From assembly GCA_034667685.1 (NCBI GenBank), contig JAXDQU010000078.1, positions 1 through 57,321 on the forward strand: a stretch of DNA of 57,321 nt, written 5' to 3'. Below, in pieces: positions 3,211 to 23,337 of this stretch; positions within the stretch are counted from its first letter, which is position 1; each line of letters opens with the position of its first letter. Made by a program: the position numbers and the translations under genes. This stretch comes from Thermoplasmata archaeon. GTDB lineage: Archaea; Thermoplasmatota; SW-10-69-26; JACQPN01; JAJPHT01. Under the pieces are notes generated by a model. It was not told where the DNA came from, did no database searches, and saw only the letters and a program-made list of their open reading frames with translations.

Positions 3211-4836
3211 ATGCGCGTCGTGACGCTGGCGCTCGCGCTCCTGCTCGCGGTGCCCGTGGGCGCGGCGGCCTCCAACGCCGCGTCGGGCTGGCGCGCGGCG
3301 CGCCTGATCACGAGCGCGGACGCGGGCCCCGCGAAGCGCTTCGAGGCGTTCGACACGGCGAGCCTCGTCCTCGCGGACGTCGACGGCGACGGGCGCCAGG
3401 AGGTCGTGACGCAGAACGACAACAACCACGTCTACGTCCTCGACGCCGCGCGCGGCCGCATCCTCGCGGAGCTGACGACGACGCACCCGGGCAACGACTC
3501 GTGGGGCGCGCGTGACATCAACCCCGTGAGCGTGGGGCGCCTGGAGCCGGGCGGGCCGATCTGCCTCGTCGTGCCCAACGGCGCGGGCTACGTCTCCGCG
3601 TGGTGCTATCAGGGCAAGGACCTCGTGACCGGCCGGCTCCGCTTCCAGGAGCGCTGGGAGATCGATGCCTCGCCCTGGCTCTACGAGAAGGGGTACGCCG
3701 CCGCGCACCCGTGGGTGGACACGACGCAACGTCCGGGGCTCGATGGCGATGCGTTCCTCGCCGACGTGACGGGCGATGGCCGCCCCGAGGTCTTCCTGGA
3801 GACGGACGGTCCCGCGGGGCAGCTTTCGTTCGGGCCCGACGGCAAGTACCGCTGGAGCACGAGCATGTGGGACGGCAACGCGGGCGCGGTCGTCGCCGAT
3901 CTGAAGGCGGACGGCAGGAAGGAGGCCGTCTTCGCGAGCGACGCCGGCGTCATCAGCGTCTACGACGCGAAGGCGGGCAAGCTGCTCTGGACCTTCGACG
4001 CGCGTCAGCACGGCGCGGCGCCCGGCAGCATCCCCGTCCCGCCGCTGGCTGCCGATATCACGGGCGACGGCAAGCCCGAGATCGTCTTCGCGGCGCGCGA
4101 CGCGCACGACGCGGCCAACGTCATGAACGACCACGCGACGTGGTTCGCGCTCGCGGGCGACGGGAAGCTGCTCTGGGCCACCAGCGCGCCGTGGATGAAC
4201 CCGCTCTCCTACGACCACCCGGCCGCACTCGACGTCAACGGCGACGGCGTGAAGGACGTCGTGGCGCTCGACTGGAACACCATCGGCCACAAGCCGGGCA
4301 ACTGGGAGACGACGGGCCGGCCCAGCAACCTCTTCGCGCTCGACGGCCGTACCGGCAAGCCGATCTGGCACGTTCCCGTGGACGTCGACTGGAGCAACAA
4401 GGACTTCGTCGTCCTCGGCCACGACATCATCCTCGACGAGCGGCGCGACGGCGTCGAGGGGCTGGGCGTGCGGAGCCTCGCGGGGGGCGGCCCGACCGGC
4501 TTCTTCCCGCTGCCCGCGGGCTGGAGCGCGATGCGCGGGCCCGTCGCGGGCGACGTGGACGGCGACGGCCTGGTCGACCTCGTCGTCCCGCTCGCGCGCC
4601 CCGACGCGGCGCCGAACTACCGAACGCTCGACGTGGGCCACCGCGAGGGCGCGCTGCTCGTGGTCGCCACCGGCTCCCGCGCGCCCCTCGCGTGGTCCGC
4701 CGACATCCTGGGCAACGACGTGGCGTGCTGCGGCGCCCGGACGCTCTCGTGGACCCAGCGGCTCGTGCCGGGGATCGCCGTGGCGCCGGTCCTGGCGGCC
4801 GTCGCGCTGTTATCCTTGGCGCGCCGACGGCGATGA
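3211..4836 (+). CDS. Secreted FG-GAP/VCBS beta-propeller protein, paralogue of the upstream gene
   Basis: Signal peptide; DVDGDG repeats; shares FEAFDTASL, DWNTIGHKPGNWETT and WSNKDFV with the upstream gene; ends VPGIAVAPVLAAVALLSLARRRR. Confidence 0.85.
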   Translation: MRVVTLALALLLAVPVGAAASNAASGWRAARLITSADAGPAKRFEAFDTASLVLADVDGDGRQEVVTQNDNNHVYVLDAARGRILAELTTTHPGNDSWGARDINPVSVGRLEPGGPICLVVPNGAGYVSAWCYQGKDLVTGRLRFQERWEIDASPWLYEKGYAAAHPWVDTTQRPGLDGDAFLADVTGDGRPEVFLETDGPAGQLSFGPDGKYRWSTSMWDGNAGAVVADLKADGRKEAVFASDAGVISVYDAKAGKLLWTFDARQHGAAPGSIPVPPLAADITGDGKPEIVFAARDAHDAANVMNDHATWFALAGDGKLLWATSAPWMNPLSYDHPAALDVNGDGVKDVVALDWNTIGHKPGNWETTGRPSNLFALDGRTGKPIWHVPVDVDWSNKDFVVLGHDIILDERRDGVEGLGVRSLAGGGPTGFFPLPAGWSAMRGPVAGDVDGDGLVDLVVPLARPDAAPNYRTLDVGHREGALLVVATGSRAPLAWSADILGNDVACCGARTLSWTQRLVPGIAVAPVLAAVALLSLARRRR

Positions 4837-9778: not shown

Positions 9779-11743
9779 TCACCTGGGAAGGATGGCGGGA
9801 ACGTCGCCCGCGTTGATGTCCATGCCGGCGAGCCAGACCGCGTTGTCGCGGGAGGGCGGCGCGCCGGTGTACGTGTCGTGGCCCCCGAGATCGAGGAACG
9901 TGCCGATGGTGTCGCCTTCGAGACCCTCGCCGCCGCCCAGGAGCACGCCGCGGCCCGCGGTCCAGCGCGGATCGTTGGGCCCGTTGTTCGGGTGGGCCTG
10001 CATGAAGTGGCCGTCGTCGCCCGAGACGTCGACGAACACGCCTTCGCCCTCGGCGGGTCCGCCGAAGCCCTCGTTCATCGTGTAGACGGAGCGGGGCGAG
10101 CGCGTGTCGCCGAAGTACGTGTCGTTGCCGCCCAGCGTCACGAAGACGCCGAGGCCCGCGTACGAGCCCGTGCCGAAGGCGCAGTTGAGCAGCGGGATGA
10201 TGTACGGGTTCGTCGCGCTCGACACGGCCTCGAAGTTGTCGTTGCCGCCGTCGTCGACGAAGATGCCGGTGCCCGCGAACGCCGCGAAGCCGTAGGCGTA
10301 GAAGTCGGTCGTGGTGGCATTGTCCCAGGCGTGGTAGCCGTCGTTGCCCATGCCCGTGTCGTGGAAGACGCCCACGCCGCCAAAGAAGCCGGTGCCGGTG
10401 GGGTAGAGCCCCTGGAACGAGAAGCTGTTGAGGCCGTTGTCGAAGCCGTAGGCGAGGTATTGGTCGTCGCCGCCGCCGTCGGCGAGGATGCCCACGCCGC
10501 CCGCGTTGCCGAAGCCCTGCGCGAGGTCCCAGGTGCTATCACCCGAGGACGTGACGTCGGCCTCGTAGCGGTCGTTGCCGGCCGCGTCGAGCTGGATGCC
10601 CACCGCCGCGAGGCCGTAGCCCTGGGCGCCCGCGTCGATGTAGTACGAGGGGCCGCCCCAGAGCTGGCCGTGGTCGGCCGCCTGCGCGAAGCTGGCGAGG
10701 TACGAGTCGCTGCCCGCCGCGTCGACGAGCAGGCCGATGCCGCCCTCGCTCGCGGAGCCGTCGACGTCCGTGGGCCGGCCGCCGTAGGCATATGCGTCGT
10801 CGCCCGCCAAGTCCACGAGCACGCTCGCCACGAGGCCGTTGCAGTCGTGGATCAGGCTCGCGGGGTCGGGGCACGCGGAGCCGGCGGTGACGTGATACGT
10901 GTCGTCGCCCGCGGGATCCACGAGCAGCGCCGGGTCGCGCAGGACGCCGGTGCGCTCGTAGACGTCGTTGCCCGAGGAGCCGAGGATGACGAGGCCGTTG
11001 GGGTCGGCGAAGAGCGCGACGCGGGATTCCGGCCACGCCACACCCTGGACCGCCGCGCGGAAGGCATTCTGCGCCGCCACGAGGTCGAGCGCGCGCGAGA
11101 GCGTCGCCTCGCGCTGCGCGTCGGAGAGCGTGACGACCGTTTGCCCGCCCGAGGCCTTCTCGGCCACGAGGACCGCCTGCGCGAGGGGCGCCTGCGCGAC
11201 GTACGCGTCCGCCACCGCGTGCACGAGGTCCGCGAAGGGCTGGCGCACGTCGTCAGGCAGAGCCGCGGCCTGCGACTCGACGCGGGCCATCTGGCCTGCG
11301 TCGAGCGGGAAGCCCGCGGCCGCGTCGAGGCGCGCCACGTCCGTCACGAGGTCGCCGCGCGCGGCGGCCGCGCCGGGCTGGAGCGCGAGCAGGCGCGAGG
11401 CGGTGCCCAGCTGGGCCCACTGCGAGACGGTGCGACCGTCGCGCACCTCAGCGCCGATCGCCTTCTGCGCGACCTCCAAGGGCGAGAGCCCCTGCATGTC
11501 GAGGCGCTGCGGGTGACCCACGCCGTGGTCCGCCATGAAGTGCTGCACGCGCGCCGCGAAGCGCGGATCCTGGAGGCCCTCGTAGTTCAGCTGGCCCAGC
11601 GTCTTCCCCTGCGTCGGGTTGGGCGCGAGAACGGGCACGTGCGCGGTGAGCGCGGCGGCGAGCCCTGCCGTGCAAACGAGAGCGGCAAGGACGAGAGCGG
11701 TGGGACGGAACGTGGGACCAGCCTCCGTCCGCCCCAAGGCCAA
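9779..11743 (-). CDS. Secreted protein with ~11 GxGhhhDxxGxDxY repeats
   Basis: Hydrophobic N-terminus; repeats such as LLVDPAGDDTY, GIGLLVDAAGSDSY, GVGILADGGGDDQY, TIGTFLDLGGHDTY. Start codon uncertain. Confidence 0.8.
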   Translation of the reverse strand: MALGRTEAGPTFRPTALVLAALVCTAGLAAALTAHVPVLAPNPTQGKTLGQLNYEGLQDPRFAARVQHFMADHGVGHPQRLDMQGLSPLEVAQKAIGAEVRDGRTVSQWAQLGTASRLLALQPGAAAARGDLVTDVARLDAAAGFPLDAGQMARVESQAAALPDDVRQPFADLVHAVADAYVAQAPLAQAVLVAEKASGGQTVVTLSDAQREATLSRALDLVAAQNAFRAAVQGVAWPESRVALFADPNGLVILGSSGNDVYERTGVLRDPALLVDPAGDDTYHVTAGSACPDPASLIHDCNGLVASVLVDLAGDDAYAYGGRPTDVDGSASEGGIGLLVDAAGSDSYLASFAQAADHGQLWGGPSYYIDAGAQGYGLAAVGIQLDAAGNDRYEADVTSSGDSTWDLAQGFGNAGGVGILADGGGDDQYLAYGFDNGLNSFSFQGLYPTGTGFFGGVGVFHDTGMGNDGYHAWDNATTTDFYAYGFAAFAGTGIFVDDGGNDNFEAVSSATNPYIIPLLNCAFGTGSYAGLGVFVTLGGNDTYFGDTRSPRSVYTMNEGFGGPAEGEGVFVDVSGDDGHFMQAHPNNGPNDPRWTAGRGVLLGGGEGLEGDTIGTFLDLGGHDTYTGAPPSRDNAVWLAGMDINAGDVPAILPR

Positions 11744-11793: not shown

Positions 11794-12096
11794 CTAGAAG
11801 TCCTGGGGTCCCCGCTTGTGACGCGGAGGCCGATAGAACAGCGCCGTGTGCCCGCGCACCTCGACGAGCGTCACGCGCGCCGCCTGCGCGAGGCCCTGCG
11901 CGAGCGCCTTCGCGTCCGCGTCCTCGCGCGCCGAGGCCAGGATCTTGACCTTCACGAGCGGATCGCGCTCCAGACGCGCCTGAAGCTCCTTCACGACGCC
12001 CTCGCTCACGCCATCCTTGCCCACCTGGAAGGCGACGCCGAGCGTCTGCCCCGTGGCGCGCAGCGCGGCAAGATCATGGCTGGTCAGGTTGGCCAC
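11794..12096 (-). CDS. YhbY/CRM-domain RNA-binding protein
   Basis: QVGKDGVSE..VKEL...L....LVKVK...VEVRG.T.LFYR; canonical neighbour of rpp21. Confidence 0.9.
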   Translation of the reverse strand: MANLTSHDLAALRATGQTLGVAFQVGKDGVSEGVVKELQARLERDPLVKVKILASAREDADAKALAQGLAQAARVTLVEVRGHTALFYRPPRHKRGPQDF

Positions 12097-12418
12097 GAGG
12101 CGCCGATGCGGGCCCCGATGATAAGACCTTGCGCCGCGAAGCGCCGCACGCCAGGCACGTCGTCACGCGCCGCCCCCCGCGCAGCCGCACGCGCGACGAC
12201 ACGCCCGGCGCCAGGTAGGCCTTGCACGCCCGGCAGATGCGCGCCTCGATCGCCGTGCCCCGCAACTGGTAGCGCGTCTTCACGCGCCACGCGAGCTGCG
12301 CATACCGGTCCGCCCGATCCCGGCGCCCCGCCCCCAGCGCCTCCGCGGCAAGGTCCGCCAGACGCGCGACGCGATCCAACGCCACGCCGCGCTCCTCGCC
12401 CTTGTTCCGCCGCGCCAC
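12074..12418 (-). CDS. rnp4: Ribonuclease P protein component 4 (Rpp21)
   Basis: ADRYAQLA, ICRAC..YL.PG...RVRL and TCLACG..RR zinc ribbon; GTG start (MARRNK) inferred. Confidence 0.88.
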   Translation of the reverse strand: MARRNKGEERGVALDRVARLADLAAEALGAGRRDRADRYAQLAWRVKTRYQLRGTAIEARICRACKAYLAPGVSSRVRLRGGRRVTTCLACGASRRKVLSSGPASAPRGQPDQP

Positions 12419-12513
12419 GCGCGGACGAGGCGCCTCCCCGGCATGAGCCCTCCGCCCGAAGCTTTCATAGAGGGGGACTCTGGTGCGCGCGGCACCGGGC
12501 CGATTCTCGGCAT

Positions 12514-12536
12514 GCGGACGTAATGATACCATCGGC
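12514..12536 (+). repeat. attL: 8-bp core plus left inverted arm
   Basis: GCGGACGT AATGATACCATCGGC; the core is identical to the first 8 nt of the tRNA at 21861. Confidence 0.75.
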
Positions 12537-12914
12537 TGGACTCTCCCGAAACAATGGGCGGGGGAGGTCCGGAACCGGGTCTTGAGGGGGTTCCGATCTT
12601 GTGGAGCCCCGTGGCGGTTCTGGCGCGGGTCCTTACTGAATAGGAAGGAAACTCCACGCCTTGGAACCGCATTCCTGGGGCTCCTTCTGGATCGAGCACG
12701 CGCAGGGCGCGGCTCCGATCCTTCTGCGCTCCTATGTCAGGGAGAGGCAATCCGAGCGCGTACTCGGCAAGCGCGGCGCGCCCCCTGCGCACCGCTCGGG
12801 TTCTTCCGTGCGGTCGGCCTAGCGCGGACCTGACACGGCCAAGATGGCGCCGTGCCGGCGTTGGCTGGACATGAGGGGGGCTTCCCGATTTTCGAGGTGG
12901 AGAAGATCCCCCGT

Positions 12915-12942
12915 CATGAGGATCTCGACATGAGGATCTCGA
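12915..12942. repeat. Perfect 14-bp tandem duplication CATGAGGATCTCGA x2
   Basis: Read directly from the sequence, in the largely non-coding left arm of the element. Confidence 0.85.
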
Positions 12943-12997
12943 CCCGAGAACCCGACCCTGTGGTAGGCTTGACGTCCTCGGAGTGGATCGAGACTCG

Positions 12998-13183
12998 ATG
13001 CCTGTCTTGAGCGGTTGGCTCCTCCTGGGGGTCGTCGCGTTGCTGCTGCGCTGCGGGGCATGGCTGATCCGTGAGGCTCGCCCGGGGAGGGAGGCGCGTC
13101 GGAAGCTGCTATTGCTAGGCTCGATCGTGGTCCTGGCAGCGGTCGCGGTGGCGCTGTTCATGGTCGGGTTGACCTTGTTGTAG
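12998..13183 (+). CDS. Small two-TM membrane protein
   Basis: MPVLSGWLLLGVVALLL...RRKLLLLGSIVVLAAVAVALFMVGLTLL; two hydrophobic segments with a basic loop. Confidence 0.5.
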   Translation: MPVLSGWLLLGVVALLLRCGAWLIREARPGREARRKLLLLGSIVVLAAVAVALFMVGLTLL

Positions 13184-13731
13184 GCTGCCCACCCTATTCT
13201 TCTTAGACCCATTCTGCGGGACGGCCGCGTTCTTCCCAGGAGTTGGCGGGTGTTGACCTTCCGGCGGTGACCCTCGGGTTCCGAGGGCTCGACCCCTCGG
13301 CGGGAGCACGAGAGGATGCAAATCTCACCATCATACGGGGCTCCGGTGTGCGAGCCTGGCAGGTCCGGGCAGCGCTCGGCCGGATCGGCTGGAGGAGATA
13401 GGCATGGATCGGGGCGCGTTGGCGGCCAGGAAAAAATTCCGTACAGGCGGCATCCTCGCGGCCGTCGCTGTTTCGCGCGCCGGTGCGCGCGGCCAAGATG
13501 CCGGGGCCCCTGACACCTGGTACGTCCGGGCGGAACCCAGAGTCGACTTCCGGCACTTCTCCGGCATGTCCTGGGAAGCGGAACTTTCAAAAAGGACGTT
13601 GGCGCCAAGGCCCCTTGATTGGTGATCGGCTTGGAGGCCTCCTCTCGTGACGTCCGCGGTGAACCCTCGAATCCCGCGGACCACCGAAAGCGTCGAGTCG
13701 TTGGAGAGTCACGGCGGGTCAGGTGATACTC

Positions 13732-14523
13732 ATGGCGAACGTGATGGACCACAATGCCCGATTCCTGCTCTGCTTCCGACTGCACCTGGCAAGCTACGCG
13801 CTCCTCGGGGAGCGTCTGACGGTGAGCAAGGTTGCGCAGGTGGAGCGGTGCGACCGGCATATGGTGAAGGACGCGCTCGAATGGCTCGGCCGTACCGGAT
13901 GTGTCGAAGAATTGCAGGCGCGCAAAGGGCGGCTCTCGGATCGGGAGTACGTCGTCTCGACCGATTGCTTCCACTTGCGGCCTATGCGGGGCGACGATGG
14001 CGGGCTCTCGCCCGAGGTCGTGGCGGCGTCCGAGGAGATGGGGGAACCGGCGCGCGGGCGGTTCCTGGGCGAGATCGTGCCGGATCGGCTTGTGCATGGA
14101 AGCGCAGTGCGGGACAAGGTGCTCCAACGCATCTACGAGGGCGCGTCCTTGGAGGACCCGACGAGCCTCCAGAAGCCCGCGAGGCACGAGACGGAGCCCA
14201 TGAAGGCCGCCGTCTTGGCCGACCGCGCCAGCGGGCATCGGATGGACCATGCCTTCGTTCTGGGCGGCGAGCTCGTCATCTGGAATCGTGGCCTCTACGC
14301 GCGGGCCCACGGCTCCGGGATCGTGACGTTCGGCGACGTGGGGATCAAGACCCAACCGACGGGGGCGGACGTGATGCGGGCAATCCGCGAGATGCGGCGC
14401 CTCCCGCGCGACGTTCGCGCTGTGAGCATGCAGGAAATCCCCATCTCTCCCCAGGATCCGAACGATCCGCTCGTGCAAGCATTCGAAGCGGCGCGGCGCC
14501 GAAGGCAGGAGTGGTCCGCGTGA
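13732..14523 (+). CDS. Hypothetical protein with probable N-terminal winged-helix DNA-binding domain
   Basis: AGGTGAT SD before ATG; LTVSKVAQVERCDRHMVKDALEWLGRTGCVEE resembles a wHTH. Confidence 0.65.
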   Translation: MANVMDHNARFLLCFRLHLASYALLGERLTVSKVAQVERCDRHMVKDALEWLGRTGCVEELQARKGRLSDREYVVSTDCFHLRPMRGDDGGLSPEVVAASEEMGEPARGRFLGEIVPDRLVHGSAVRDKVLQRIYEGASLEDPTSLQKPARHETEPMKAAVLADRASGHRMDHAFVLGGELVIWNRGLYARAHGSGIVTFGDVGIKTQPTGADVMRAIREMRRLPRDVRAVSMQEIPISPQDPNDPLVQAFEAARRRRQEWSA

Positions 14524-14972
14524 TCGGCGCCGCGAAGCCGCGCCTGGCCCGACGCGCCCGCCGCCCACGACGCCGGAAGGGACGGCGCTGGCCCTTCGTT
14601 CTCCTCACGGTCGCCTACGCGGGCGCGCTCAAGGACGCGAAGCCGAGCCCGTACCACCACGTTTGGGACGAGGAGCCCGGCGCGCGCTCCTGGGCCGGTG
14701 AGCAATACCGTAGCGTCGAGGGCCTGGACTGGTCGGACGCCGAGTTCTGGATCGCCGTCTTGTTGGCGATGCCGTTCTCGATGCAGGCATACTTCTTCTC
14801 GCTGCGGACGAGTGCGCAGCGGGCAGCATGGTTCGCCGTGGCCCGCGCCGACCATTCGCAGGCTCCGGCGTTCCTCCAGGCACGGAGCCTCTACCTGAGC
14901 GAGCGGAGCAGGCAGGTGCGCTACGTTCGGCGCGTGCCCCCACCGCTTGCGGGGGTGAGCCTGGATGGCTGA
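14520..14972 (+). CDS. Hypothetical protein (150 aa, Arg-rich N-terminus)
   Basis: GTG overlaps the upstream TGA (GTGA) and its stop overlaps the next ATG; corresponds to the 3' part of track ORF 13647..14972. Confidence 0.55.
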   Translation: MIGAAKPRLARRARRPRRRKGRRWPFVLLTVAYAGALKDAKPSPYHHVWDEEPGARSWAGEQYRSVEGLDWSDAEFWIAVLLAMPFSMQAYFFSLRTSAQRAAWFAVARADHSQAPAFLQARSLYLSERSRQVRYVRRVPPPLAGVSLDG

Positions 14973-16185
14973 CGCCCTGGGAACGCCACCGGCCGCGCCG
15001 ATCCCGGTGCCCTCGCGGCAAACCCAGTTGGCCGCCCGGTTCAAGACGCTGCCCGACTTGGGCGCGGGGCTCCTGCCCGACTGGTGGGGGCAGAACCGGC
15101 AGCACTACGTCACGGCGTTGGGCCTGGCCTACGACGGCTCGTTTCGCCAAGAGCCAGGGGCAGATTGGGCCGTGCGGGTCCGCAAGAGTGCGGACGCGGC
15201 CGACTACTTCCTGAGCGCATGCCGCAGCGTGGGCCTGGAGATGGCACCCTTCCATTGGGATGCCCTGGCCGCGCGCATCCGACCCGACGACACGCGCAAG
15301 CAAGGCGATCACATTGCGCTCGTGCGCGCCCTGAACACCGACTACGGCGCGCGGTTCTCCGAGCACGTGCAGTACCGCCTCCTTACCGACGGGAACGTCC
15401 ACGTCGAGATCACGGGTCCCACCGGGCTTGGCAAGAGCAGCTGCGCGATTGCCCTGGCGGACTGGATCTGGCCCATTCGGCCCGGTGAACTGCTCCGCCA
15501 TGTGAACTTCGACATGGACGAGCTCACCGACAAGCTGCCCCGGCTGGATCGCGGCGAGAGCGTCATTCAGGATGAAGTCCTCGAACTGACGGGCGAGGGC
15601 GCGGCGACCGCACGCTCGAAGCTCAACAACGTGGAGGACACCATCAGGAAGCGCGGCGTGAACCTCATCACTTGTTCGCCGCGCGAGCACGACTTCGCCA
15701 CGATGCAGATCGAGTTGGAGGCCTTGGCGTGGAACCGGGTGGACAAGTGGACCTTGTTCCTCGCTCACGTCGCAGGCAAGCCCACGGGCCTCGTGCCGAT
15801 CCCGTGGTGTCGCGCCGAGCTGTGGAACGAATACGAGCCATTCAAGGCGGCGAACCTGGAGCGCAGCCTGAGCGGCGCGTTCCAGGATCGCAAGTGGCTC
15901 ACGCGGAAGGCCATGCGCTTCTTCGGTGACGAAAACCTCGTGGACTACCTCGACAGCATGCCCAAAGGCCGCCAGTTCACGCGCACCGACTTCGACCGCG
16001 CCATCGGCGCGTTCCGCGGCGACGCGATGGCGAGCGCGCAGCGGCAGAAGGTCGCGTCCATGATGTTCGAGATGGTCATGCCGTCGAGCGCGGGCTCGTG
16101 CTGCTCAAGGAGCACGAAGAAGGGAAGTGGACGCCGACGAAGAAGTGAGTCCTACCCGAACCGGCTCCGGTTTTTCGTGAGGTGA
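14965..16185 (+). CDS. P-loop NTPase of mobile-element type, probably frameshifted near the 3' end
   Basis: Walker A ITGPTGLGKS, Walker B SVIQDE, then IRKRGVNLITCSP; a more plausible C-terminus exists in the -1 frame, ending at 16148. Confidence 0.8.
   Translation: MADALGTPPAAPIPVPSRQTQLAARFKTLPDLGAGLLPDWWGQNRQHYVTALGLAYDGSFRQEPGADWAVRVRKSADAADYFLSACRSVGLEMAPFHWDALAARIRPDDTRKQGDHIALVRALNTDYGARFSEHVQYRLLTDGNVHVEITGPTGLGKSSCAIALADWIWPIRPGELLRHVNFDMDELTDKLPRLDRGESVIQDEVLELTGEGAATARSKLNNVEDTIRKRGVNLITCSPREHDFATMQIELEALAWNRVDKWTLFLAHVAGKPTGLVPIPWCRAELWNEYEPFKAANLERSLSGAFQDRKWLTRKAMRFFGDENLVDYLDSMPKGRQFTRTDFDRAIGAFRGDAMASAQRQKVASMMFEMVMPSSAGSCCSRSTKKGSGRRRRSESYPNRLRFFVR
16160..16175 (+). terminator. 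Short hairpin plus T-tract after the NTPase
   Basis: AACCGG-CT-CCGGTTTTTT. Confidence 0.4.
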
Positions 16186-16300
16186 GCCGACTCCGAGGGG
16201 CATGAGCGTAACAGTAAACTTCCAGTTGCAACAGAGGTACTGTAACGTGCCCCTGTCGAAGATATAAGGGCCAAGCGCCATCTGCCCCAGCCGACCGGAG

Positions 16301-17494
16301 GTGGGAACGCTGGTAGATCATTCGGCCGCAGACTCGATGTTGGGCTACTACCACCAAGCGCGTTACGCCCTGTATCTGGCCCTGCGCGCGGAAGATCCAA
16401 CCGCAACTATCGAGATTGAGACCGCGGACGACATCGTGTTCGACGCCGCGGGTGAGCCGCGGCAACTCCTGCAATCGAAGCACCACGCGAGCAAGGGCAG
16501 CATCGCAAACGCAAGCGTGGAGCTATGGAAAACGCTGAGAATCTGGGCCGAGCACGAGCGCAAGACCAAGGGAGCGGCCGATGTGCGATACGTCCTTGTG
16601 ACAACGGCCAAGGCGTCGGGCGGCTCGGCCGCGCAGTACCTTCGGCCTGGCCCTGCACGTAGCGTTGAGAAGGCGTGGGGGCTGCTCTCAGAGGTACCCG
16701 ACATCTCAACGCGCGAGGAGAATGAAACAGCATACACTGAGTGGAAGAAGCTCCGTCCAAAGGGACAGAAGCGACTCCTCGAGAAGGTCCACATACTCGA
16801 CGGATCACCAAACATCCTCCAGACGGACCAACTGCTCCGAGACCGCCTCGGCCTGCTCGCTGCTAGAGAGAAGGTCGAAGATTTCATGGCAGCAGTCGAA
16901 GGGCAGTGGCTCCGGGGAGTTATCCGGCGTCTGGCGGGACAGATGAAGGCGCCCCTAATCGTGGGCGAGATCCAGGACTACGCCCACGAAGTCTCGCTGC
17001 AATACCGGCGCGATGCTCTCACCATTGACTTCGACAAGGCTGTCCCGGCTGGCGTTGTGGAAGATCACGACGATCGACAATTCGTCGATCAACTCCGCTG
17101 GATCAATGCAACGCCCGATAGCATCCGGCGCAGCATTCAGGACTATTATCGAGCTTTCCAACAGCGCAGCCTCTGGGTCAGAAAACAAAGGATCCACCCT
17201 GACGAGATCGAGGAATACGACAACCAGCTGATCGATGAGTGGAGCCGTCGCGTCGACGTAGACCAACGCGGGCTCGGTAACAATCCGAACGAGGCAGCAT
17301 GTGTGACTGCGGGCTGGCAGACCTTCCAATGGGCTCACTCGGAGGCTGCCATACACATCCGGGACGATTGCACCGTTCCATACGTCTGTCGCGGGAGCTT
17401 CCATGTCCTCGCAGATGCTGATCCCCCTGACGTCGGCTGGCACCCCCACTATCTCGCGAAGGCACAAGCGCGCAAGAAGGGTGGGAAGCCATGA
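16301..17494 (+). CDS. lmuA: Lamassu/ABC-3C effector (LmuA-like) with Cap4-like PD-(D/E)xK nuclease and C-terminal ABC-3C domain
   Basis: HSA..S.LGY.HQ..YAL, IEIE..DD, LLQSKHH, LWKTL.IW, QRS.W, RGSFH.LAD....GWHP; TATA-like GATATAAG at 16261. Confidence 0.82.
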   Translation: MGTLVDHSAADSMLGYYHQARYALYLALRAEDPTATIEIETADDIVFDAAGEPRQLLQSKHHASKGSIANASVELWKTLRIWAEHERKTKGAADVRYVLVTTAKASGGSAAQYLRPGPARSVEKAWGLLSEVPDISTREENETAYTEWKKLRPKGQKRLLEKVHILDGSPNILQTDQLLRDRLGLLAAREKVEDFMAAVEGQWLRGVIRRLAGQMKAPLIVGEIQDYAHEVSLQYRRDALTIDFDKAVPAGVVEDHDDRQFVDQLRWINATPDSIRRSIQDYYRAFQQRSLWVRKQRIHPDEIEEYDNQLIDEWSRRVDVDQRGLGNNPNEAACVTAGWQTFQWAHSEAAIHIRDDCTVPYVCRGSFHVLADADPPDVGWHPHYLAKAQARKKGGKP

Positions 17495-17979
17495 CGCGCG
17501 TGCGTTCTCTCGCACCGGAAGTTGCGAACCTTATCAACCCGAGCTTCTGTGGCTACCTCTTGAGACGAGCGGCAGAAGGCTATGCAAAGGAACGAGGGAC
17601 TGGCATCCCGTTCGAGCTCACGTTCCTTGTGTTGCCCATTGTACTCCATGAGGAAACACGCCAAGCGCTACCGCCCAACATTCGCACGAAGATGCACCCG
17701 TGGCTCCAAGAGACGCCCGTTGCACGGCTCGGCTTCGCATCGCGCGCCCGCGCACTCTCGACCTTCACTCGAAACGGTCTGTTATTCGCGAGCACGCATG
17801 GCATTGCCCGAGTCGATCAGGACGGCCGTGTGTGGCCTACACCCTTCACACCGAAGAAGCCCCCAGTCAAGGCTGCTGAAGTCCGCGAGTGTCTCGACAC
17901 CGCCGAATTGGTTGGCCGCTGGCTGGCGCAGGCCGGCAATCCAGCCACAATCTATCTCATGTGGGGAATCCAACCGTGA
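17491..17979 (+). CDS. lmuC: Lamassu/ABC-3C middle component (LmuC-like)
   Basis: EVANL.NP.F, FLVLPIVLHEETR..LP, G.W.......IY...GI.P; ATGA/GTGA coupling to both neighbours. Confidence 0.8.
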   Translation: MTRVRSLAPEVANLINPSFCGYLLRRAAEGYAKERGTGIPFELTFLVLPIVLHEETRQALPPNIRTKMHPWLQETPVARLGFASRARALSTFTRNGLLFASTHGIARVDQDGRVWPTPFTPKKPPVKAAEVRECLDTAELVGRWLAQAGNPATIYLMWGIQP

Positions 17980-19880
17980 CATTCCAAATCCTCGATCTTG
18001 TAGTGTATGCCCGGAACAGCGACAAGATCAATCGTATCAAACTCAAGCCCGGGAAAGTCAACCTCATCTCCGGTCCCGCGAAGACGGGAAAGAGTCAGGT
18101 CATCAACGTGATTGAGTACTGCCTCGCACGTGGGGAGTGCCCGATTGCGGAGGGCGTGATCCTTGACCATGCAGCTTGGTTTGGGCTTCGAATTCAACTC
18201 ACTGACACGCAGGTGTTCCTCGCACGCCCCTCGCCAGAAGGCGCATCCACCTCGCTCATGTTTCTGGAAGCTGCTCACGAAGTTCGGATTCCAATGAAGA
18301 GCGAGCTCGTTGCGAATACGAACGCCGACGCAGTTGAGAAATATTTGACAAGATCCATCGGGATTACTCCGAACCTCCATGTTCCTCCCGAGGGACACAC
18401 TCGGCCTCCGATTGAAGCCAACGTCCGGCACGCGCTTTTCTTCACCTCACAGGCGCAGAACGAGATTGCCAACAAGGACATCCTGTTCCATCGCCAGTCG
18501 GAGCAGATGATGTTCAACACTATTCGCGACACCCTACCCTACTTCCTGGGGGCAGTCGAAGAAAACCAGCTCTCACTCCTGCACGAACTCCAGGAAGCGA
18601 AGCGTGAACTCAAGCTCGCGACGCGGGCGCTCGCTGAAGCGGATACACTGCAAGGCGAGGGTGTGAGCCGGGGTCATGGTCTGCTTGCAGAAGCGCGGCA
18701 GTACGGGATCATTCCCGAAGGGCCATCCCCTCCCACTGAAGGTGGAGTGCGCGCGCTCCTTGAGCCGGGTCTCCGTTGGAGGCCCGCAGATGTCGCAACA
18801 CTGTCCAATCCGCGTCTCACGGAGTATCAAGAGAGGCGTGAGTCACTCCGCCGGGACTATGCCGAGTGGTCTCGAAAAGCTAAGGAAATCGAGCTAATGG
18901 CTGCCGAGACTAGTGACTTTGCGAAGGAAGTCACTGAGCAGACGTTCCGCCTCGAAACAATCAACGTCTATCCAAGCCAAGCCGGAACTCAAACGCAGTG
19001 CCCGCTCTGCCTGCGAGCGACCGAAGCACCGCGGCATCAAGAGGAACAGATGCGGGCCTCAATCACCGCCCTAAAAGCAAACTTGAGCGCTGCTCAACGC
19101 GAGCGCCCTCGATTTGAGGAGTATGGTCAGAAGGTCCAAGGCGAAATCAGCAAGATTCGTCGCGAAGCGGGTCAGGTTGAGATGGCAATCGAGGCCATCG
19201 TTCGTGATGACGAACGCGCTAAGAACCTCAGGGACAGGAACGCGCAAGCAGCGCAAGTTGTTGGCAGGATCAGCTTTTACCTGGAGAATCCGGTAAAAGA
19301 AGAGAACGTAGACGAATTCAAGGCAGCAGCCGAATCGGCCCGCGCTCGCGTAGATGAGCTCGAAGAGCGACTGTCACGCGAGGCATCTCAAGATCGTCTC
19401 GCGTACATTCTCGACGAAGTTAGCCGAAGGATGACTCAACTCGCCATACGCCTCGGCCTTGAGCACAGCGAGAAGCCCGTGAGGCTCGACATCCCACGGC
19501 TTACGGTCCTCGTAGAGCGACAAGGACGGTTCACTCCGTTGTCGCGCATTGGCAGCGGTGAGAACCACGAGGGATACCATGTCGTCACGTACTTGGCGCT
19601 CCACGAATGGTTCACGACCCACAACCGGCCCGTTCCTCGATTCCTGTTCCTCGATCAGCCGACCCAGATCTACTACGGCGGAGTGCAACGTGACCGCGAG
19701 CGCGTGAAGGAACTCTTCAAGCTCTTTAGCGACACCTGTGAATCCCTCGAAGGGAAGTTCCAGATGATAATCACGGAGCATGCTGATTTCGCGGAGGACC
19801 CCGCGTTCAAGGGCCATGTGGCGGAGGATTGGTGGAAGGGAGGCGCATTGATCCCGCCTGAGTGGATTCCCGCGGAATGA
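17976..19880 (+). CDS. lmuB: Lamassu SMC-like ABC ATPase (LmuB-like, DUF3732 type)
   Basis: Walker A ISGPAKTGKS, coiled coils with CPLC zinc hook, signature IGSGEN, Walker B FLFLDQP, IITEHA. Confidence 0.88.
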   Translation: MTFQILDLVVYARNSDKINRIKLKPGKVNLISGPAKTGKSQVINVIEYCLARGECPIAEGVILDHAAWFGLRIQLTDTQVFLARPSPEGASTSLMFLEAAHEVRIPMKSELVANTNADAVEKYLTRSIGITPNLHVPPEGHTRPPIEANVRHALFFTSQAQNEIANKDILFHRQSEQMMFNTIRDTLPYFLGAVEENQLSLLHELQEAKRELKLATRALAEADTLQGEGVSRGHGLLAEARQYGIIPEGPSPPTEGGVRALLEPGLRWRPADVATLSNPRLTEYQERRESLRRDYAEWSRKAKEIELMAAETSDFAKEVTEQTFRLETINVYPSQAGTQTQCPLCLRATEAPRHQEEQMRASITALKANLSAAQRERPRFEEYGQKVQGEISKIRREAGQVEMAIEAIVRDDERAKNLRDRNAQAAQVVGRISFYLENPVKEENVDEFKAAAESARARVDELEERLSREASQDRLAYILDEVSRRMTQLAIRLGLEHSEKPVRLDIPRLTVLVERQGRFTPLSRIGSGENHEGYHVVTYLALHEWFTTHNRPVPRFLFLDQPTQIYYGGVQRDRERVKELFKLFSDTCESLEGKFQMIITEHADFAEDPAFKGHVAEDWWKGGALIPPEWIPAE

Positions 19881-20013
19881 TGTCTGTTGAGCACCTTACT
19901 AGTACTCGTGCTGCTTGCTCCCTTCAGGGTCGTCTCCAACAGGGCGATTCCGACCCGCGATTTGCATCCAGGTCCCTGACGGGCCGGTGCAGCTCATCGC
20001 GCAGAGGCTCGCA

Positions 20014-20700
20014 TCATTTCTTCGTTGCGCGAAGATAGACGTACACGCTTCGTGGATTGCGGCGACCCGGCGCTTCCAAGAGAAGAACCCACGGGCCACG
20101 ACCGCGGGGAGTCCACTTGACCGAGTATGCTCGTCGTCCATCGCCACCATAGTCCATGTTCGGATCCTCATCGTTTCGGAGTGCGACGTACTTGCGCTCG
20201 CTCAGGATCCAGAAATCAAAGTCGCCATCGCCATCGAGCTTCCCTGTAATTGTCGCGTCGGACGGAACGTCCAGGTGAAGGACGGTCATCGTTCCAGGGC
20301 GAACAGGGTGCGGGCCTTCATCGCAGACTGCTGTTTCGACGTGTGCGTCGGGTCGATCGTTCCCGCGGCGGCGCCCAGCATGGCGGTCGGGCTCTATCTC
20401 AACGGGGCCTGCCAGTTCCTGCTCGGCGGGGTTGGCCTCCATGAGTTCGATTCGCGGGGGCGGGGGCGGCGCAGGATAGTGGTGATGCTGCTCTCGAATG
20501 ATGGTCCCTCCGGGGGCGTTCATTAGGTCATGGCCAGCGTTCTGCACGGCCGCCTCAATTCGGTTCCCGCTTTCCCCCCGCCCCTTTGCGACAAGAATCG
20601 CGATGATCGCGACCACGACTCCCAGGGCTGTGGCGATAGACCCCACCATGACCCAATCAACCATCGCCGCGGCAGCCGCCCTTTGGGGCATAAGCGTCAT
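20014..20700 (-). CDS. Hypothetical membrane-anchored protein downstream of the integrase
   Basis: N-terminal TM (WVMVGSIATALGVVVAIIAILVA), Pro/His linker, beta-rich C-terminal domain. Start uncertain. Confidence 0.65.
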   Translation of the reverse strand: MTLMPQRAAAAAMVDWVMVGSIATALGVVVAIIAILVAKGRGESGNRIEAAVQNAGHDLMNAPGGTIIREQHHHYPAPPPPPRIELMEANPAEQELAGPVEIEPDRHAGRRRGNDRPDAHVETAVCDEGPHPVRPGTMTVLHLDVPSDATITGKLDGDGDFDFWILSERKYVALRNDEDPNMDYGGDGRRAYSVKWTPRGRGPWVLLLEAPGRRNPRSVYVYLRATKK

Positions 20701-20705
20701 GGGCA

Positions 20706-21836
20706 CTATATTCCGGTCCCGCCCGCGCGCAGTTGGCGGATTGTCTCCGCGACCGCTGTAGGCACCGCTTGCGCAACCGCCGCTGCCACCGCCGTCTGCA
20801 ACGCCTTCGTTGGGTCCTCCCGGATCATTGCCCCGACAGGATCAATCCGCGCGGCGGCCCGAATCTCGGCCTCCACGTCCACGGCGGCCAGGTGGACATA
20901 GGTGGAGCTCTCGCGCGAGCCGGGAGCCCACCCAAAATAGGCGTTGAGCTTGGGCTCGTTCCAGCCAGCCTTCGCGGCCCGCGTCGCCCGGGTGTGCCGG
21001 AAGATGTGGCACGTCACGATCCGGTCGAGCTTGCCGGCCTTGGAGTAGTCCCTCAGGATCTTGTTCACGGTCGTGGGCTCCAGCGGCGCGTCCGGCTCGT
21101 GGTTGCTCGGGAAGAGCGGCGCAGATGGGTCGCCCCTGGCCGGGTGGTGCTGGAGCCAGACGCGAAGCGCCGGCACGGACTCGCTGACGTAGATCGTCCG
21201 CGGCCCCGTCTTCAGGTGCGGCGCGTCGCGCGGCATCTCCAGGTGGGCGCCCTCCTGGTCGTCGAAGATGACGCTCCCGACCCGGAGGGCCAGGGCCTCG
21301 CTGATGCGGAAGCCGGAGTCCCAGAGAACCCAGAGGAGCGCCTGCCGCATCCAGCCGCGCTTCGTCAGGTTGCTCCCCCAGGCCTGGCCGAGCAGCGCCC
21401 GGAACTCGTCCTCGGTCAAGGGCCGCTTCCGGGGGCTCTTGGGCTTCTTGACGCGCAAGGCCTCCCGGTACGCCCTGGGGAGGTCGGCGTCGTGGACCCA
21501 GGTGTAGAGCGCCTTCAGGTAGACGGCGAAGCGGAAGGTGCTGGCGGGGCTGTGCGTGGCCCCGTAGATCGTCAGGGTCCGGGTCAGGTCCGAGGGCGTC
21601 AGCTCCCGGAAGGACCGGCCCGGATTGATGGCGTCGAGCTGGAGCAAGTAGGAGCCGACGTTCACCAGGCTGGAGAGCGTGTTCCCCTTGGCCCGCTGCT
21701 TCTCGAAGTACGCCCCGGCGATTTCGCGGTTCGGGCTGGGCAAGCGTTCAAGTACCTTTTCCACGAATGCGGCCGCGCGCCGGGTCCGGTAGTCCTTCCG
21801 GGGTTCCTTGCGCACCCCTTGATCGGAGATTTCCAT
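20706..21836 (-). CDS. Tyrosine recombinase/integrase
   Basis: Catalytic set DSGFRISEAL (R), LKTG (K), HIFRHTRAT (HxxR), FGW (W), STYVHL (Y). ATG 21836 is preferred over GTG 21857, which lies inside the att arm. Confidence 0.95.
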   Translation of the reverse strand: MEISDQGVRKEPRKDYRTRRAAAFVEKVLERLPSPNREIAGAYFEKQRAKGNTLSSLVNVGSYLLQLDAINPGRSFRELTPSDLTRTLTIYGATHSPASTFRFAVYLKALYTWVHDADLPRAYREALRVKKPKSPRKRPLTEDEFRALLGQAWGSNLTKRGWMRQALLWVLWDSGFRISEALALRVGSVIFDDQEGAHLEMPRDAPHLKTGPRTIYVSESVPALRVWLQHHPARGDPSAPLFPSNHEPDAPLEPTTVNKILRDYSKAGKLDRIVTCHIFRHTRATRAAKAGWNEPKLNAYFGWAPGSRESSTYVHLAAVDVEAEIRAAARIDPVGAMIREDPTKALQTAVAAAVAQAVPTAVAETIRQLRAGGTGI

Positions 21837-21860
21837 AATCGCCGAATGGGGTATCACTTA

Positions 21861-21947
21861 GCGGACGTCGCCTAGCCCGGTATGGCGCGGCACTGGAAAT
21901 GCCGTGTCCGAAAGGATCCGGGAGTTCGAATCTCCCCGTCCGCGCCA
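21861..21947 (+). tRNA. tRNA-Ser(GGA) with encoded CCA
   Basis: Acceptor GCGGACG/CGTCCGC, anticodon arm CGGCA-CTGGAAA-TGCCG, long variable arm, T-arm GGGAG-TTCGAAT-CTCCC, G discriminator + CCA. Confidence 0.97.
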
Positions 21948-21957
21948 ATCCCCCGAG

Positions 21958-22030
21958 CCCGGGCCCTCTTCCGCTTCCGAGCCTGCTTGCGCCCGCAGGG
22001 CTCGGAAGCGGAATCGAAAGCGGGCCCGGG
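21958..22030. repeat. Long GC-rich palindrome with 6-nt TTCCGn units after the tRNA
   Basis: CCCGGGCCC..TTCCGCTTCCGAGCC ... GGCTCGGAAGCGGAA..GGGCCCGGG. Confidence 0.75.
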
Positions 22031-22131
22031 TCTCCGATTCGCGGGCCGCATAAGAAAATGCACAGCAGGAATCGCCTGCCCGCAAGCCATGAATATTAAG
22101 GCCCTTGTCCCGCTGCCAAGCCGTGAGCGCG

Positions 22132-23337
22132 ATGTCCCATCGTTTCCTCTTCACCAGCGAGTCCGTGACCGAAGGCCACCCCGACAAGCTCTGCGACCAG
22201 ATCTCGGACGGCGTGCTCGACGCGATCTTCGCCAAGGACCCCAGCGCGCGCGTGGCGTGCGAGACGTTCGCGACGACCGGCCTCGTGCTCGTGGGCGGCG
22301 AGATCAGCACGCACGAGTACGTGGAGCTCCAGGACCTCGTGCGCAGCATCATCCGCGACATCGGCTACACGAAGGGCGCCTACGGCCTGGACGCGGACAC
22401 GTGCAGCGTGCTCAGCGCGATCCACGAGCAGAGCAAGGACATCGCGCAGGGCGTCGTCAAGAAGGAGGCCGCGGAGACCGGCGCCGGCGACCAGGGGCTC
22501 ATGTTCGGCTACGCCACGAAGGAGACGCCCGAGCTGATGCCGCTGGCGATCCAGCTCGCGCACCGCCTGGCGCGCCGCCTCGCGCAGGTCCGCAAGCAGC
22601 ACATCGTGCCGCACCTCCGGCCCGACGGCAAGACGCAGGTCACGATCGAGTGGCGCGACGGCAAGCCCGTGCACGCGCACGCCATCGTCGTCGCCGCGCA
22701 GCACGACCCCGAGATCAGCCAGGACGACCTGCGCCGCCGCATCATCGCCTACGTCATCGAGCCCGTGATCGAGGAGTACGTCAAGAGCGGCCACGTGCCC
22801 GCGGACTTCTTCGACACGAAGACCGAGCTCTACATCAACCACACCGGCAAGTTCGAGATCGGCGGGCCGCACGGCGACACGGGCCTCACCGGCCGCAAGA
22901 TCATCGTGGACACCTACGGCGGCGCGGCGCCCCACGGCGGCGGCGCGTTCAGCGGCAAGGACCCCACCAAGGTCGACCGCAGCGCGGCGTACGGCGCGCG
23001 CTGGGCGGCGAAGAACGTCGTCTCGGCCGGGCTCGCGGAGCGCTGCCAGATCCAGCTCGCGTACAGCATCGGCCACCACGCGCCGCTCTCCATCAACGTG
23101 CAGACGTTCGGCACGGGCGTCGAGAAGAAGGGGAGCCGCCTCACCGACGCGGACGTCGAGGGCTACATCAAGAAGGTCTTCGACTTCAGCCCGTACGGCC
23201 TGATCCGCGAGCTTCAGCTTCGCCGCCCCATCTACCGGCAGGTCGCCGCGTACGGCCACTTCGGCCGCGACGACCTCGACCTGCCCTGGGAGCGCACCGA
23301 CAAGGTCGAGGAACTTCGCCGCGTGGCGGGGCTGTAA
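22132..23337 (+). CDS. metK: S-adenosylmethionine synthetase, bacterial/eukaryotic type
   Basis: [46 protein letters not shown]. Confidence 0.97.

Follow-up and report, generated by a model that had tools for sequence, protein, structure and literature searches.

The window analysed here, 57,321 nucleotides (nt) long, is contig C78 of the 3.48-Mb genome (G000) of a soil archaeon of the Thermoplasmata, which is 99% complete and carries 48 tRNAs; relatives in the public record carry the label Thermoplasmatota. An integrated element of 9.3 kb (12522–21860) lies in this window between the native promoter of a tRNA-Ser(GGA) gene and the body of that tRNA, and a tyrosine integrase gene at one end of the element stands head-to-head with the tRNA. 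The features of the two junctions and the host genes beside them are given below. G001 to G004 are related genomes (G001 and G003 being congeners), contigs C79 and C120 of G000 carry a second element of this kind, and L050 is a third, in another Thermoplasmatota genome.

11794–12096, minus strand: YhbY/CRS1 RNA-binding protein, host gene (Pfam PF01985, 1.8e-20), syntenic in G003, G004 and G002
12074–12421, minus strand: rpp21 (ribonuclease P (RNase P) protein component 4), host gene (Pfam PF04032 Rpr2, 37.8 bits against a cutoff of 29.3)
12460–12473, plus strand: native B recognition element (BRE)/TATA-like promoter box of tRNA-Ser, kept in G003, G004 and G001 (12.4 bits)
12514–12521, plus strand: displaced copy of tRNA nt 1–8, the far-junction core; boundary confirmed by the homologous C120 junction
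12521–12530, plus strand: far-end arm TAATGATACC (TAAtGATACC), an inverted copy of the integrase-side arm; C120 equivalent TAAAATACC
12556–12567, plus strand: conserved motif GGGCGGGGGAGG, 35–45 nt in from the far end, with a counterpart at the equivalent position of the C120 element and of L050
20706–21836, minus strand: tyrosine integrase, intact, 376 amino acids (aa), ATG at 21836 (Pfam PF00589, 6.2e-16)
21850–21860, plus strand: integrase-side arm GGTATCACTTA (GGTATCAcTTA), abutting tRNA nt 1; C79 equivalent GGTATTCTCTT
21861–21947, plus strand: tRNA-Ser(GGA), intact, with encoded CCA (ARAGORN; Rfam RF00005, 54.2 bits)
21952–22030, no strand: palindrome resembling repetitive extragenic palindromes (REP-like), outside the element, marking a separate rearrangement

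The tRNA-Ser(GGA) has a perfect 7-bp acceptor stem. It is the sole tRNA in the window and the sole GGA isoacceptor among the 48 tRNAs of the genome, and an Rfam scan of 12000–22200 returned nothing besides it. An original prediction, made from the letters of the window, had proposed an integrated element at the 5' end of this tRNA. The 8-bp tRNA repeat, the TATA boxes and the inverted arms on which it was built are all present in the sequence where it had put them.

Junctions and the empty site

Nucleotides 1–8 of the tRNA (GCGGACGT) stand at 12514–12521 and again at 21861–21868. The window holds 9 copies of this 8-mer where 7.35 are expected, a count reached by 34 of 100 shuffles. The 8-mer alone is uninformative; its position is informative. 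Homology to G003 runs as far as 12475 on the left and starts again at 21857, which places the junction within 12476–12521, an interval in which about 0.003 chance copies of the 8-mer are expected (arithmetic from the count and the interval). No repeat beyond the 8-mer was found between the element ends. The GC content goes from 0.70–0.76 outside to 0.55–0.69 between 12500 and 20500. Contigs of a second soil run, which belongs to a different study, span both junctions as well (X2 records 9 and 15; 0 differences), so the junctions are not an artefact of assembling one sample.

The arms around the repeat are imperfect inverted copies of each other, with the cores GGTATCA at 21850–21856 and TGATACC at 12524–12530. 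Simple tyrosine-recombinase sites usually take this form, an overlap of 7–8 bp with an imperfect inverted arm on either side. Further inside the far end, the motif GGGCGGGGGAGG has only four copies in the 3.48-Mb genome, two of them at element ends. In the window (12556–12640) and L050 elements a possible GGAAC…GTTCC hairpin comes after it. Rfam has no match for the motif and hairpin region; an arm-type binding site, an origin and a small RNA are candidate roles for it. A scan of viral contigs with the motif gave more than 118 unspecific matches and was not used.

The site without the element is found in two related genomes. In G003 (contig C15) YhbY, rpp21, the conserved box (…CCGAAGCTTTCATAGAGG…) and, 44 nt on, tRNA-Ser(GGA) are contiguous; identity to the window is 77% over 11810–12475 and 94% across the tRNA (89 nt). 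G004 (C204) has the same divergent rpp21/tRNA-Ser unit. It had been predicted that relatives lacking the element would carry tRNA-Ser directly upstream of, and divergent from, rpp21, and this is the arrangement in both. The corresponding unoccupied site of a second target, tRNA-Arg(TCT), is present on G003 contig C24.

The rpp21/tRNA-Ser locus is rearrangement-prone. The G004 unit of rpp21, promoter and tRNA (C204, locus L036) is inverted as a block relative to YhbY. In G002 (C25, L035) the promoter box and the tRNA are inverted together relative to rpp21, and 4.4 kb separate YhbY from rpp21. In G001 (C125, L332 1600–1942) homology stops about 27 nt past rpp21 and the promoter box, no tRNA follows the box, and the contig ends 320 nt later; the site in G001 may be occupied by something else.

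Related elements and the integrase clade

The same genome carries a second element. Contig C79 encodes an integrase paralogue (40% identical) and a homologue (44%) of orf406, an element gene of the window described below. The C79 integrase is head-to-head with the sole tRNA-Arg(TCT) gene, its start lying 34–91 nt from tRNA nt 1; like tRNA-Ser(GGA), this target is a single-copy isoacceptor. Judged by G003, the native left flank of tRNA-Arg(TCT) is on contig C120 and not on C79. The order on C120 is host DNA, then GGGCGCGT(A), which is tRNA-Arg nt 1–8/9, then the element end. Between this element end and window positions 12522–12573, 40 of 49 positions match (82%), compared with a mean of 21.4 and a maximum of 35 for random pairs (500 trials); the host sides of the two junctions match at 30 of 52 positions. 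Since the two ends match directly after the tRNA repeat, the homology of the elements starts there, and the boundary is fixed independently. A 9-mer at C79:6042 had been considered as the far end of the second element; it was ruled out, as G003 puts the true flank on C120. The second element (C79:1–17513 plus C120:1–60) measures at least 17.5 kb across an assembly gap.

The body of tRNA-Arg and 2.9 kb of its right flank are collinear with G003:C24, and the tRNA body is therefore host DNA. This bears on the alternative that the element brought its tRNA along, so that in the window the present tRNA-Ser would be an import and the native gene would have been lost save for 8 nt. Such an origin might be read from the right flank, which is non-syntenic because tRNA-Ser in G003 is not followed by metK. 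That difference is explained by an exchange at REP-like palindromes, and contig C108 holds both partner flanks. The alternative would further require a deletion ending exactly at nt 8 to have happened twice, and it has to account for a tRNA-Ser nearly the same as that of G003 and for the collinear tRNA-Arg body. We regard it as extremely improbable.

L050 is a 5.8-kb element with the same gene layout. Its repeat, TAGGGCTCG, is 9 bp long and covers positions −2 to +7 of a tRNA-Arg(TCG). Repeat lengths are therefore 8 bp in the window, 8–9 bp for C120/C79 and 9 bp in L050, and what all three elements share is tRNA nt 1–7, the 5' strand of the acceptor stem. The element-side flanks of nt 1–7 are inverted GGTAT/ATACC arms. 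In each of the three, direct repeats derived from a tRNA are present and an integrase gene adjoins one of them. The far junction of L050 (reverse complement, about 3690–3725) has a peculiarity of its own: host-side GTATTCA pairs with element TGAATAC in a perfect inverted repeat of 7 nt about the core, although there is no second integrase gene beside it.

The integrase of the window scores 59.1 bits with PF00589 (cutoff 27.1) and 3.6e-31 with a PHROG integrase family. Across 19 aligned homologues R177, K209, H277, R280 and W303 never vary and Y313 is kept in at least 90%; by motif order these would be the catalytic R, K, H-x-x-R, H/W and the Y nucleophile. We take ATG 21836 as the start because the two closest homologues (62 and 61% identical) also begin with MEIS/MEVR. 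This ATG is 24 nt from tRNA nt 1, the two genes being divergent. The closest matches in the PDB are XerA structures (1.8e-19), and none of the 23 PDB matches is a chain that bears the name of an SSV or pTN3 integrase. The score with the archaeal XerA equivalog model NF040815 is 55.2 bits, below its cutoff of 220. A search of 5.8 billion proteins gave only 20 integrase relatives at E ≤ 1e-10. The named phage and plasmid collections hold no relative above 30% identity, and viral contigs contributed only two, both distant.

The alignment of 19 relatives was used to collect 80 reference-genome and 80 metagenome loci. Together with three copies from the window's own genome, and after 25 rows with incomplete matches were dropped and 12 exact duplicates removed, 126 rows remained for the tree. 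They were sorted according to which tRNA is nearest in the 400 nt upstream of the integrase gene: 8 are head-to-head, 36 on the same strand (the classical 3'-end layout), 47 have no tRNA, 34 have no upstream sequence, and one (C1) has a tRNA 1.6 kb away. The C1 integrase paralogue was not counted as a 5' insertion, the tRNA in question being a tRNA-Glu with a native-type promoter box. All 8 head-to-head rows fall into one clade of 14 in the FastTree tree of 126 rows (Shimodaira–Hasegawa (SH)-like support 99), and in an IQ-TREE tree of 60 rows the head-to-head cases fall into one clade of 13 (SH approximate likelihood ratio test (SH-aLRT) 96). None of the 36 same-strand rows of the larger tree, and none of the 20 in the smaller, lies inside the head-to-head clade. 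The expectation that integrase homologues would be found head-to-head with tRNA 5' ends is borne out by these 8 cases. They involve six tRNA species, with the anticodons Ser-GGA, Arg-TCT, Pro-TGG, Arg-GCG (two), Arg-TCG (two) and Gln-TTG, and their integrase starts lie 25–177 nt from tRNA nt 1. Homologues of orf406 are present beside 4 of the 8.

With the G003 empty site, the second and third elements and the clade, the proposal of an element integrated at the tRNA 5' end is well supported. Very probably the 9.3-kb element entered by site-specific recombination at this 5' end, catalysed by its own integrase. The intact tyrosine integrase would catalyse the entry of 12522–21860 across an attachment-site overlap of 7–8 bp, equal to nt 1–7/8 of the target tRNA (the 5' strand of the acceptor stem plus U8) and bordered by the imperfect inverted arms (GGTATCAcTTA next to the integrase gene, TAAtGATACC at the opposite end of the element); the cuts presumably fall within nt 1–7. 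A crossover at the start of the gene would rebuild the whole tRNA at the integrase end and leave the native promoter and leader 9.3 kb off at the far end, facing the plus-strand genes of the element. The promoter of the tRNA would then be part of the element, located in the first integrase codons or a short way upstream of them.

The 8-bp repeat might instead be the target-site duplication of a transposition-type insertion upstream of tRNA genes, the integrase being incidental. The repeats are short in all three elements (8, 8–9 and 9 bp), the element ends carry short inverted repeats as transposons do, and the excised form was not seen in the contigs of two runs. No transposase or casposase was found among the element open reading frames (ORFs) with Pfam, PHROG, PADLOC and NCBIfam, though, and the inverted arms stand 3–4 bp away from the repeat instead of abutting it. 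The three mapped insertions are all at tRNA positions 1–7, and the 8 head-to-head cases all belong to one integrase clade, whose genes start close to nt 1. We consider a target-site duplication very improbable.

Several observations count against entry by integrase-catalysed recombination at the tRNA 5' end as a full account. Four of the 13 clade members with upstream sequence have no adjoining tRNA by ARAGORN or Rfam, and the tRNA of the clade member C1, 1.6 kb off, keeps its native-type promoter. The far junction is mapped in only 3 of the 8 head-to-head elements: for L042, L043, L045, L046 and L049 the searches for exact repeats and arm symmetry were unconvincing, and the flanks there may be too short. 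An 8-mer in L042 was rejected as a far junction since it has no arms and sits in coding-like DNA. The two soil runs showed neither a circular form nor an empty site, which carries little weight because assembled contigs only were searched; the joints listed between element ends in these runs have no side longer than 30 nt and seem to be noise. There is no good host-consensus promoter box at a workable distance upstream of the window tRNA. With a stretch of identity as short as this one, the points of cleavage are not legible in the sequence.

Integration at a tRNA 5' end reportedly has a bacterial case, described by Zhao & Williams in 2002. The original prediction implied that the present arrangement is without precedent, and this has to be corrected: insertion at the 5' end with loss of the native promoter is known, if rare. 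In the passages of PMC5495485 and PMC8371274 that treat them, the pTN3-like (SSV-type, suicidal) integrases of Thermococcales and Methanococcales (pTN3, TKV4 and MVV) recombine with the 5' part of a tRNA, and, as in the window, the full tRNA is rebuilt and parted from its original promoter. For pTN3, PMC5495485 reports an identity of 41 bp, an integrase gene that is disrupted and a tRNA 'separated from its original promoter'. A 2021 review of archaeal tyrosine recombinases states that, among archaea, only the pTN3-like enzymes use the 5' half of a tRNA gene (PMC8371274). Recombination at the 5'-distal part is called 'considerably less frequent' in the relevant passage of PMC6563490, which cites five papers including Zhao & Williams (2002). 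The same passage gives CalSub-E1 of Ca. Caldiarchaeum subterraneum, at a tRNA-Ser, as the sole 5' case among 39 tRNA-targeting thaumarchaeal elements; CalSub-E1 belongs to another phylum, and we liken it to the present element by its description only.

The window integrase differs from the pTN3-like enzymes in several respects. As described for that group, attP lies inside the integrase ORF and integration divides the gene into Int(N) and Int(C), whereas the gene here is one uninterrupted ORF of 376 aa, its termini match full-length homologues, and the core is outside the ORF. The pTN3 site is described as 41 shared bp with a minimal site of tRNA-Leu nt 2–44, compared with 7–8 bp here. The passage on tRNA expression in PMC8371274 has the tRNA expressed from the integrase promoter, so that the two genes are co-directional; here they are divergent and 24 nt apart. 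Because the gene is intact and the core is only 7–8 bp, the defining features of the pTN3/SSV type are absent and the integrase is outside it. With classical tRNA 3'-end integrases it shares the fold, the catalytic residues, an integrase gene beside the attachment site and a restored tRNA. In the classical type the element is downstream of the tRNA and the native promoter is kept (PMC8371274, in its part on tRNA targets, with Williams 2002 cited therein), and in the sister clade 36 of 112 rows are on the same strand with the tRNA 3' end 20–100 nt before the integrase start. The dusA-specific integrases (PMC4482086) have a protein-coding target and bacterial hosts, in contrast to a tRNA in an archaeon.

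What is new is the system that does this here: a non-suicidal Xer-like integrase clade with a minimal acceptor-stem core, divergent to its target and, in the window, with Lamassu cargo. None of the papers listed in a small number of literature searches describes this Thermoplasmatota integrase clade. It is a second archaeal solution for targeting the 5' end of a tRNA, mechanistically different from the pTN3-like one. As only about 7 bp of the target are copied, switching between tRNA species should be easy, in keeping with six anticodons at 8 loci. Islands of this kind are probably missed by tools that seek long 3' tRNA repeats.

Promoters of the tRNA and of the element

A promoter matrix was built from 46 host tRNA upstream regions (consensus AACCTTCAAATAGG, training median 10.7 bits). 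The native promoter of tRNA-Ser had been placed near 12463, and TTTCATAG is at 12463–12470; the box around it, with its 12.4 bits, reaches a score found in 0.3% of random 90-nt windows. Besides being conserved in three related genomes, it moves with the tRNA in G002, and since box and tRNA invert together there relative to rpp21, the box belongs to the tRNA. It is now 9.3 kb from the tRNA and points into the plus-strand genes of the element. No run of five T was found between it and 16171, and the captured host promoter presumably reads into the element.

On the integrase side three promoter candidates were considered, none of them convincing; two are listed here.

21743–21756 (−118 to −105), plus strand: candidate element-borne promoter box, 10.8 bits, antisense to the integrase VLER codons
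21830–21839, plus strand: candidate TATA TTTCCATAAT, its centre about 26 nt before nt 1, overlapping the integrase ATG (21834–21836)

With 24 nt between the ATG and the tRNA, any tRNA promoter must overlap integrase codons. The original prediction took TTTCCATAAT as a candidate for the new tRNA promoter. Its location holds, the spacing being right for a start at nt 1, yet it overlaps the integrase ATG and stays below 9 bits on the host matrix, a poor match to the host consensus. The best box within 90 nt of the tRNA (8.9 bits, −24 to −11) is too close, as the start would fall inside the tRNA. The 10.8-bit box is within chance, about 2.5 such matches being expected in the 2 × 9.7 kb scanned. 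At 5 of the 8 head-to-head loci an element-side box within 90 nt scores above the 95th percentile of random windows, which lends mild support to the idea that these elements supply a promoter. The element side of L050 scores −1.2 bits.

The single-copy tRNA-Ser(GGA) is presumably now transcribed from element DNA, for it is intact, encodes its CCA and is the sole GGA isoacceptor. An essential single-copy tRNA would thereby depend on element DNA for its transcription, from a promoter accommodated within the first codons of a divergent gene or next to them. It could also be that the insertion is real and the tRNA is now silent or poorly expressed, the other serine tRNAs being sufficient. The lack of a convincing host-type promoter at a workable distance and the low score of the L050 element side agree with such silencing. 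A G34 serine tRNA normally reads UCC and UCU, though, and the tRNA keeps a perfect acceptor stem and its CCA with no second GGA isoacceptor in the genome. The arrangement recurs at six tRNA species in several genomes, which would be hard to keep if it were silencing, and the integrated form is present in two soil samples. A silent tRNA is, on balance, quite improbable.

The far-end arm of all three mapped elements contains minus-strand promoter-like boxes (10.6, 9.7 and 6.9 bits) within about 45 nt of the core. Were the window element circular, its box would stop 27 nt ahead of the integrase ATG; the position of the box differs between the elements. We hypothesize from this layout that integration may separate the integrase from its promoter. 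Joined with transcription of the tRNA from element DNA, this would make integration a reciprocal promoter exchange that works as a switch. An integrase promoter spanning the attachment site would be lost and the element locked in, the strong host tRNA promoter would be captured and read into the element genes of the same orientation, including Lamassu, and the tRNA would get an element promoter over the first integrase codons, with the TATA-like stretch centred about 26 nt ahead of nt 1. We put this forward tentatively and think it rather unlikely as a whole. If it is true, the tRNA would be made leaderless, with a 5' end that has no need of RNase P. That an RNase P subunit gene is next door is a coincidence.

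Cargo and flanking genes

The remaining genes of the element are as follows.

12661–13401, plus strand: four small ORFs of 52–66 aa, with coding-like GC at third codon positions (GC3) of 0.72–0.84
13723–14523, plus strand: orf266, GC3 0.84
14965–16185, plus strand: orf406, P-loop nucleoside triphosphatase of Zot/DnaA-like kind, 406 aa; weak PHROG match to a DnaA-like initiator (0.0039)
16301–17494, plus strand: LmuA, Lamassu/ABC-3C effector with CTD7 (PADLOC LmuA, 1.7e-54; Pfam PF20283, 8.5e-40)
17491–17979, plus strand: LmuC, ABC-3C middle component 3 (Pfam PF20131, 9.7e-46; PADLOC LmuC, 3.5e-13)
17889–19880 (maximal ORF), plus strand: LmuB, SMC-like ABC ATPase (PADLOC LmuB, 1.4e-122 from residue 31; Pfam DUF3732, 3e-42)
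20014–20706, minus strand: orf230, uncertain gene; an overlapping plus-strand ORF (19915–20526) has more coding-like GC3

LmuA, LmuC and LmuB form one operon, as in Lamassu systems; the true LmuB start is probably near 17980. The Lamassu cassette is cargo without a part in the integration, and nothing unusual was seen in it. The element shows a route by which Lamassu defence spreads in soil archaea. The cassette (16301–19880) has a GC3 of 0.66–0.69 compared with 0.84–0.90 in the backbone genes and the integrase, and this lower GC3 suggests a recent acquisition from a lower-GC source.

The orf406 gene is a backbone gene of the element family, with homologues adjoining related integrases in C79, L043, L049 and L042. 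Its atlas neighbours are Zot/AAA/DnaA-like clusters of viruses and archaea, which are leads only. The four small ORFs gave no PHROG match and no family; orf266 and orf230 gave no match in Pfam, PHROG, PADLOC or NCBIfam. Upstream of orf266 is a box (AACTTTCAAAAAGG, 13582–13595, 17.5 bits) that, of all host-type promoter-like boxes in the element, scores highest.

To the right of tRNA-Ser the palindromic repeat is followed by metK. The arms of the palindrome are 32 nt long and 78% complementary, and copies are found on at least 8 other contigs of G000 (C34, C61, C113, C76, C73, C108, C110 and C105). A reciprocal exchange between G000 and G003 falls exactly at such copies: G000 pairs tRNA-Ser with metK and the left part of C108 with its right part, and in G003 the pairs are swapped.

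On the left, rpp21 also matches NCBIfam NF003045 (1.3e-13), under the cutoff of that model. Its start is likely the GTG at 12421, which aligns with the ATG of G004, G002 and G001; a 152-aa rpp21 ORF reaching 12532 was rejected as an over-extension into the element. Beyond YhbY, a 654-aa protein (9779–11743, minus strand) has no Pfam match. It contains internal repeats on a 40-nt scale, spaced 90–135 nt apart, and is kept in G003 and G004.

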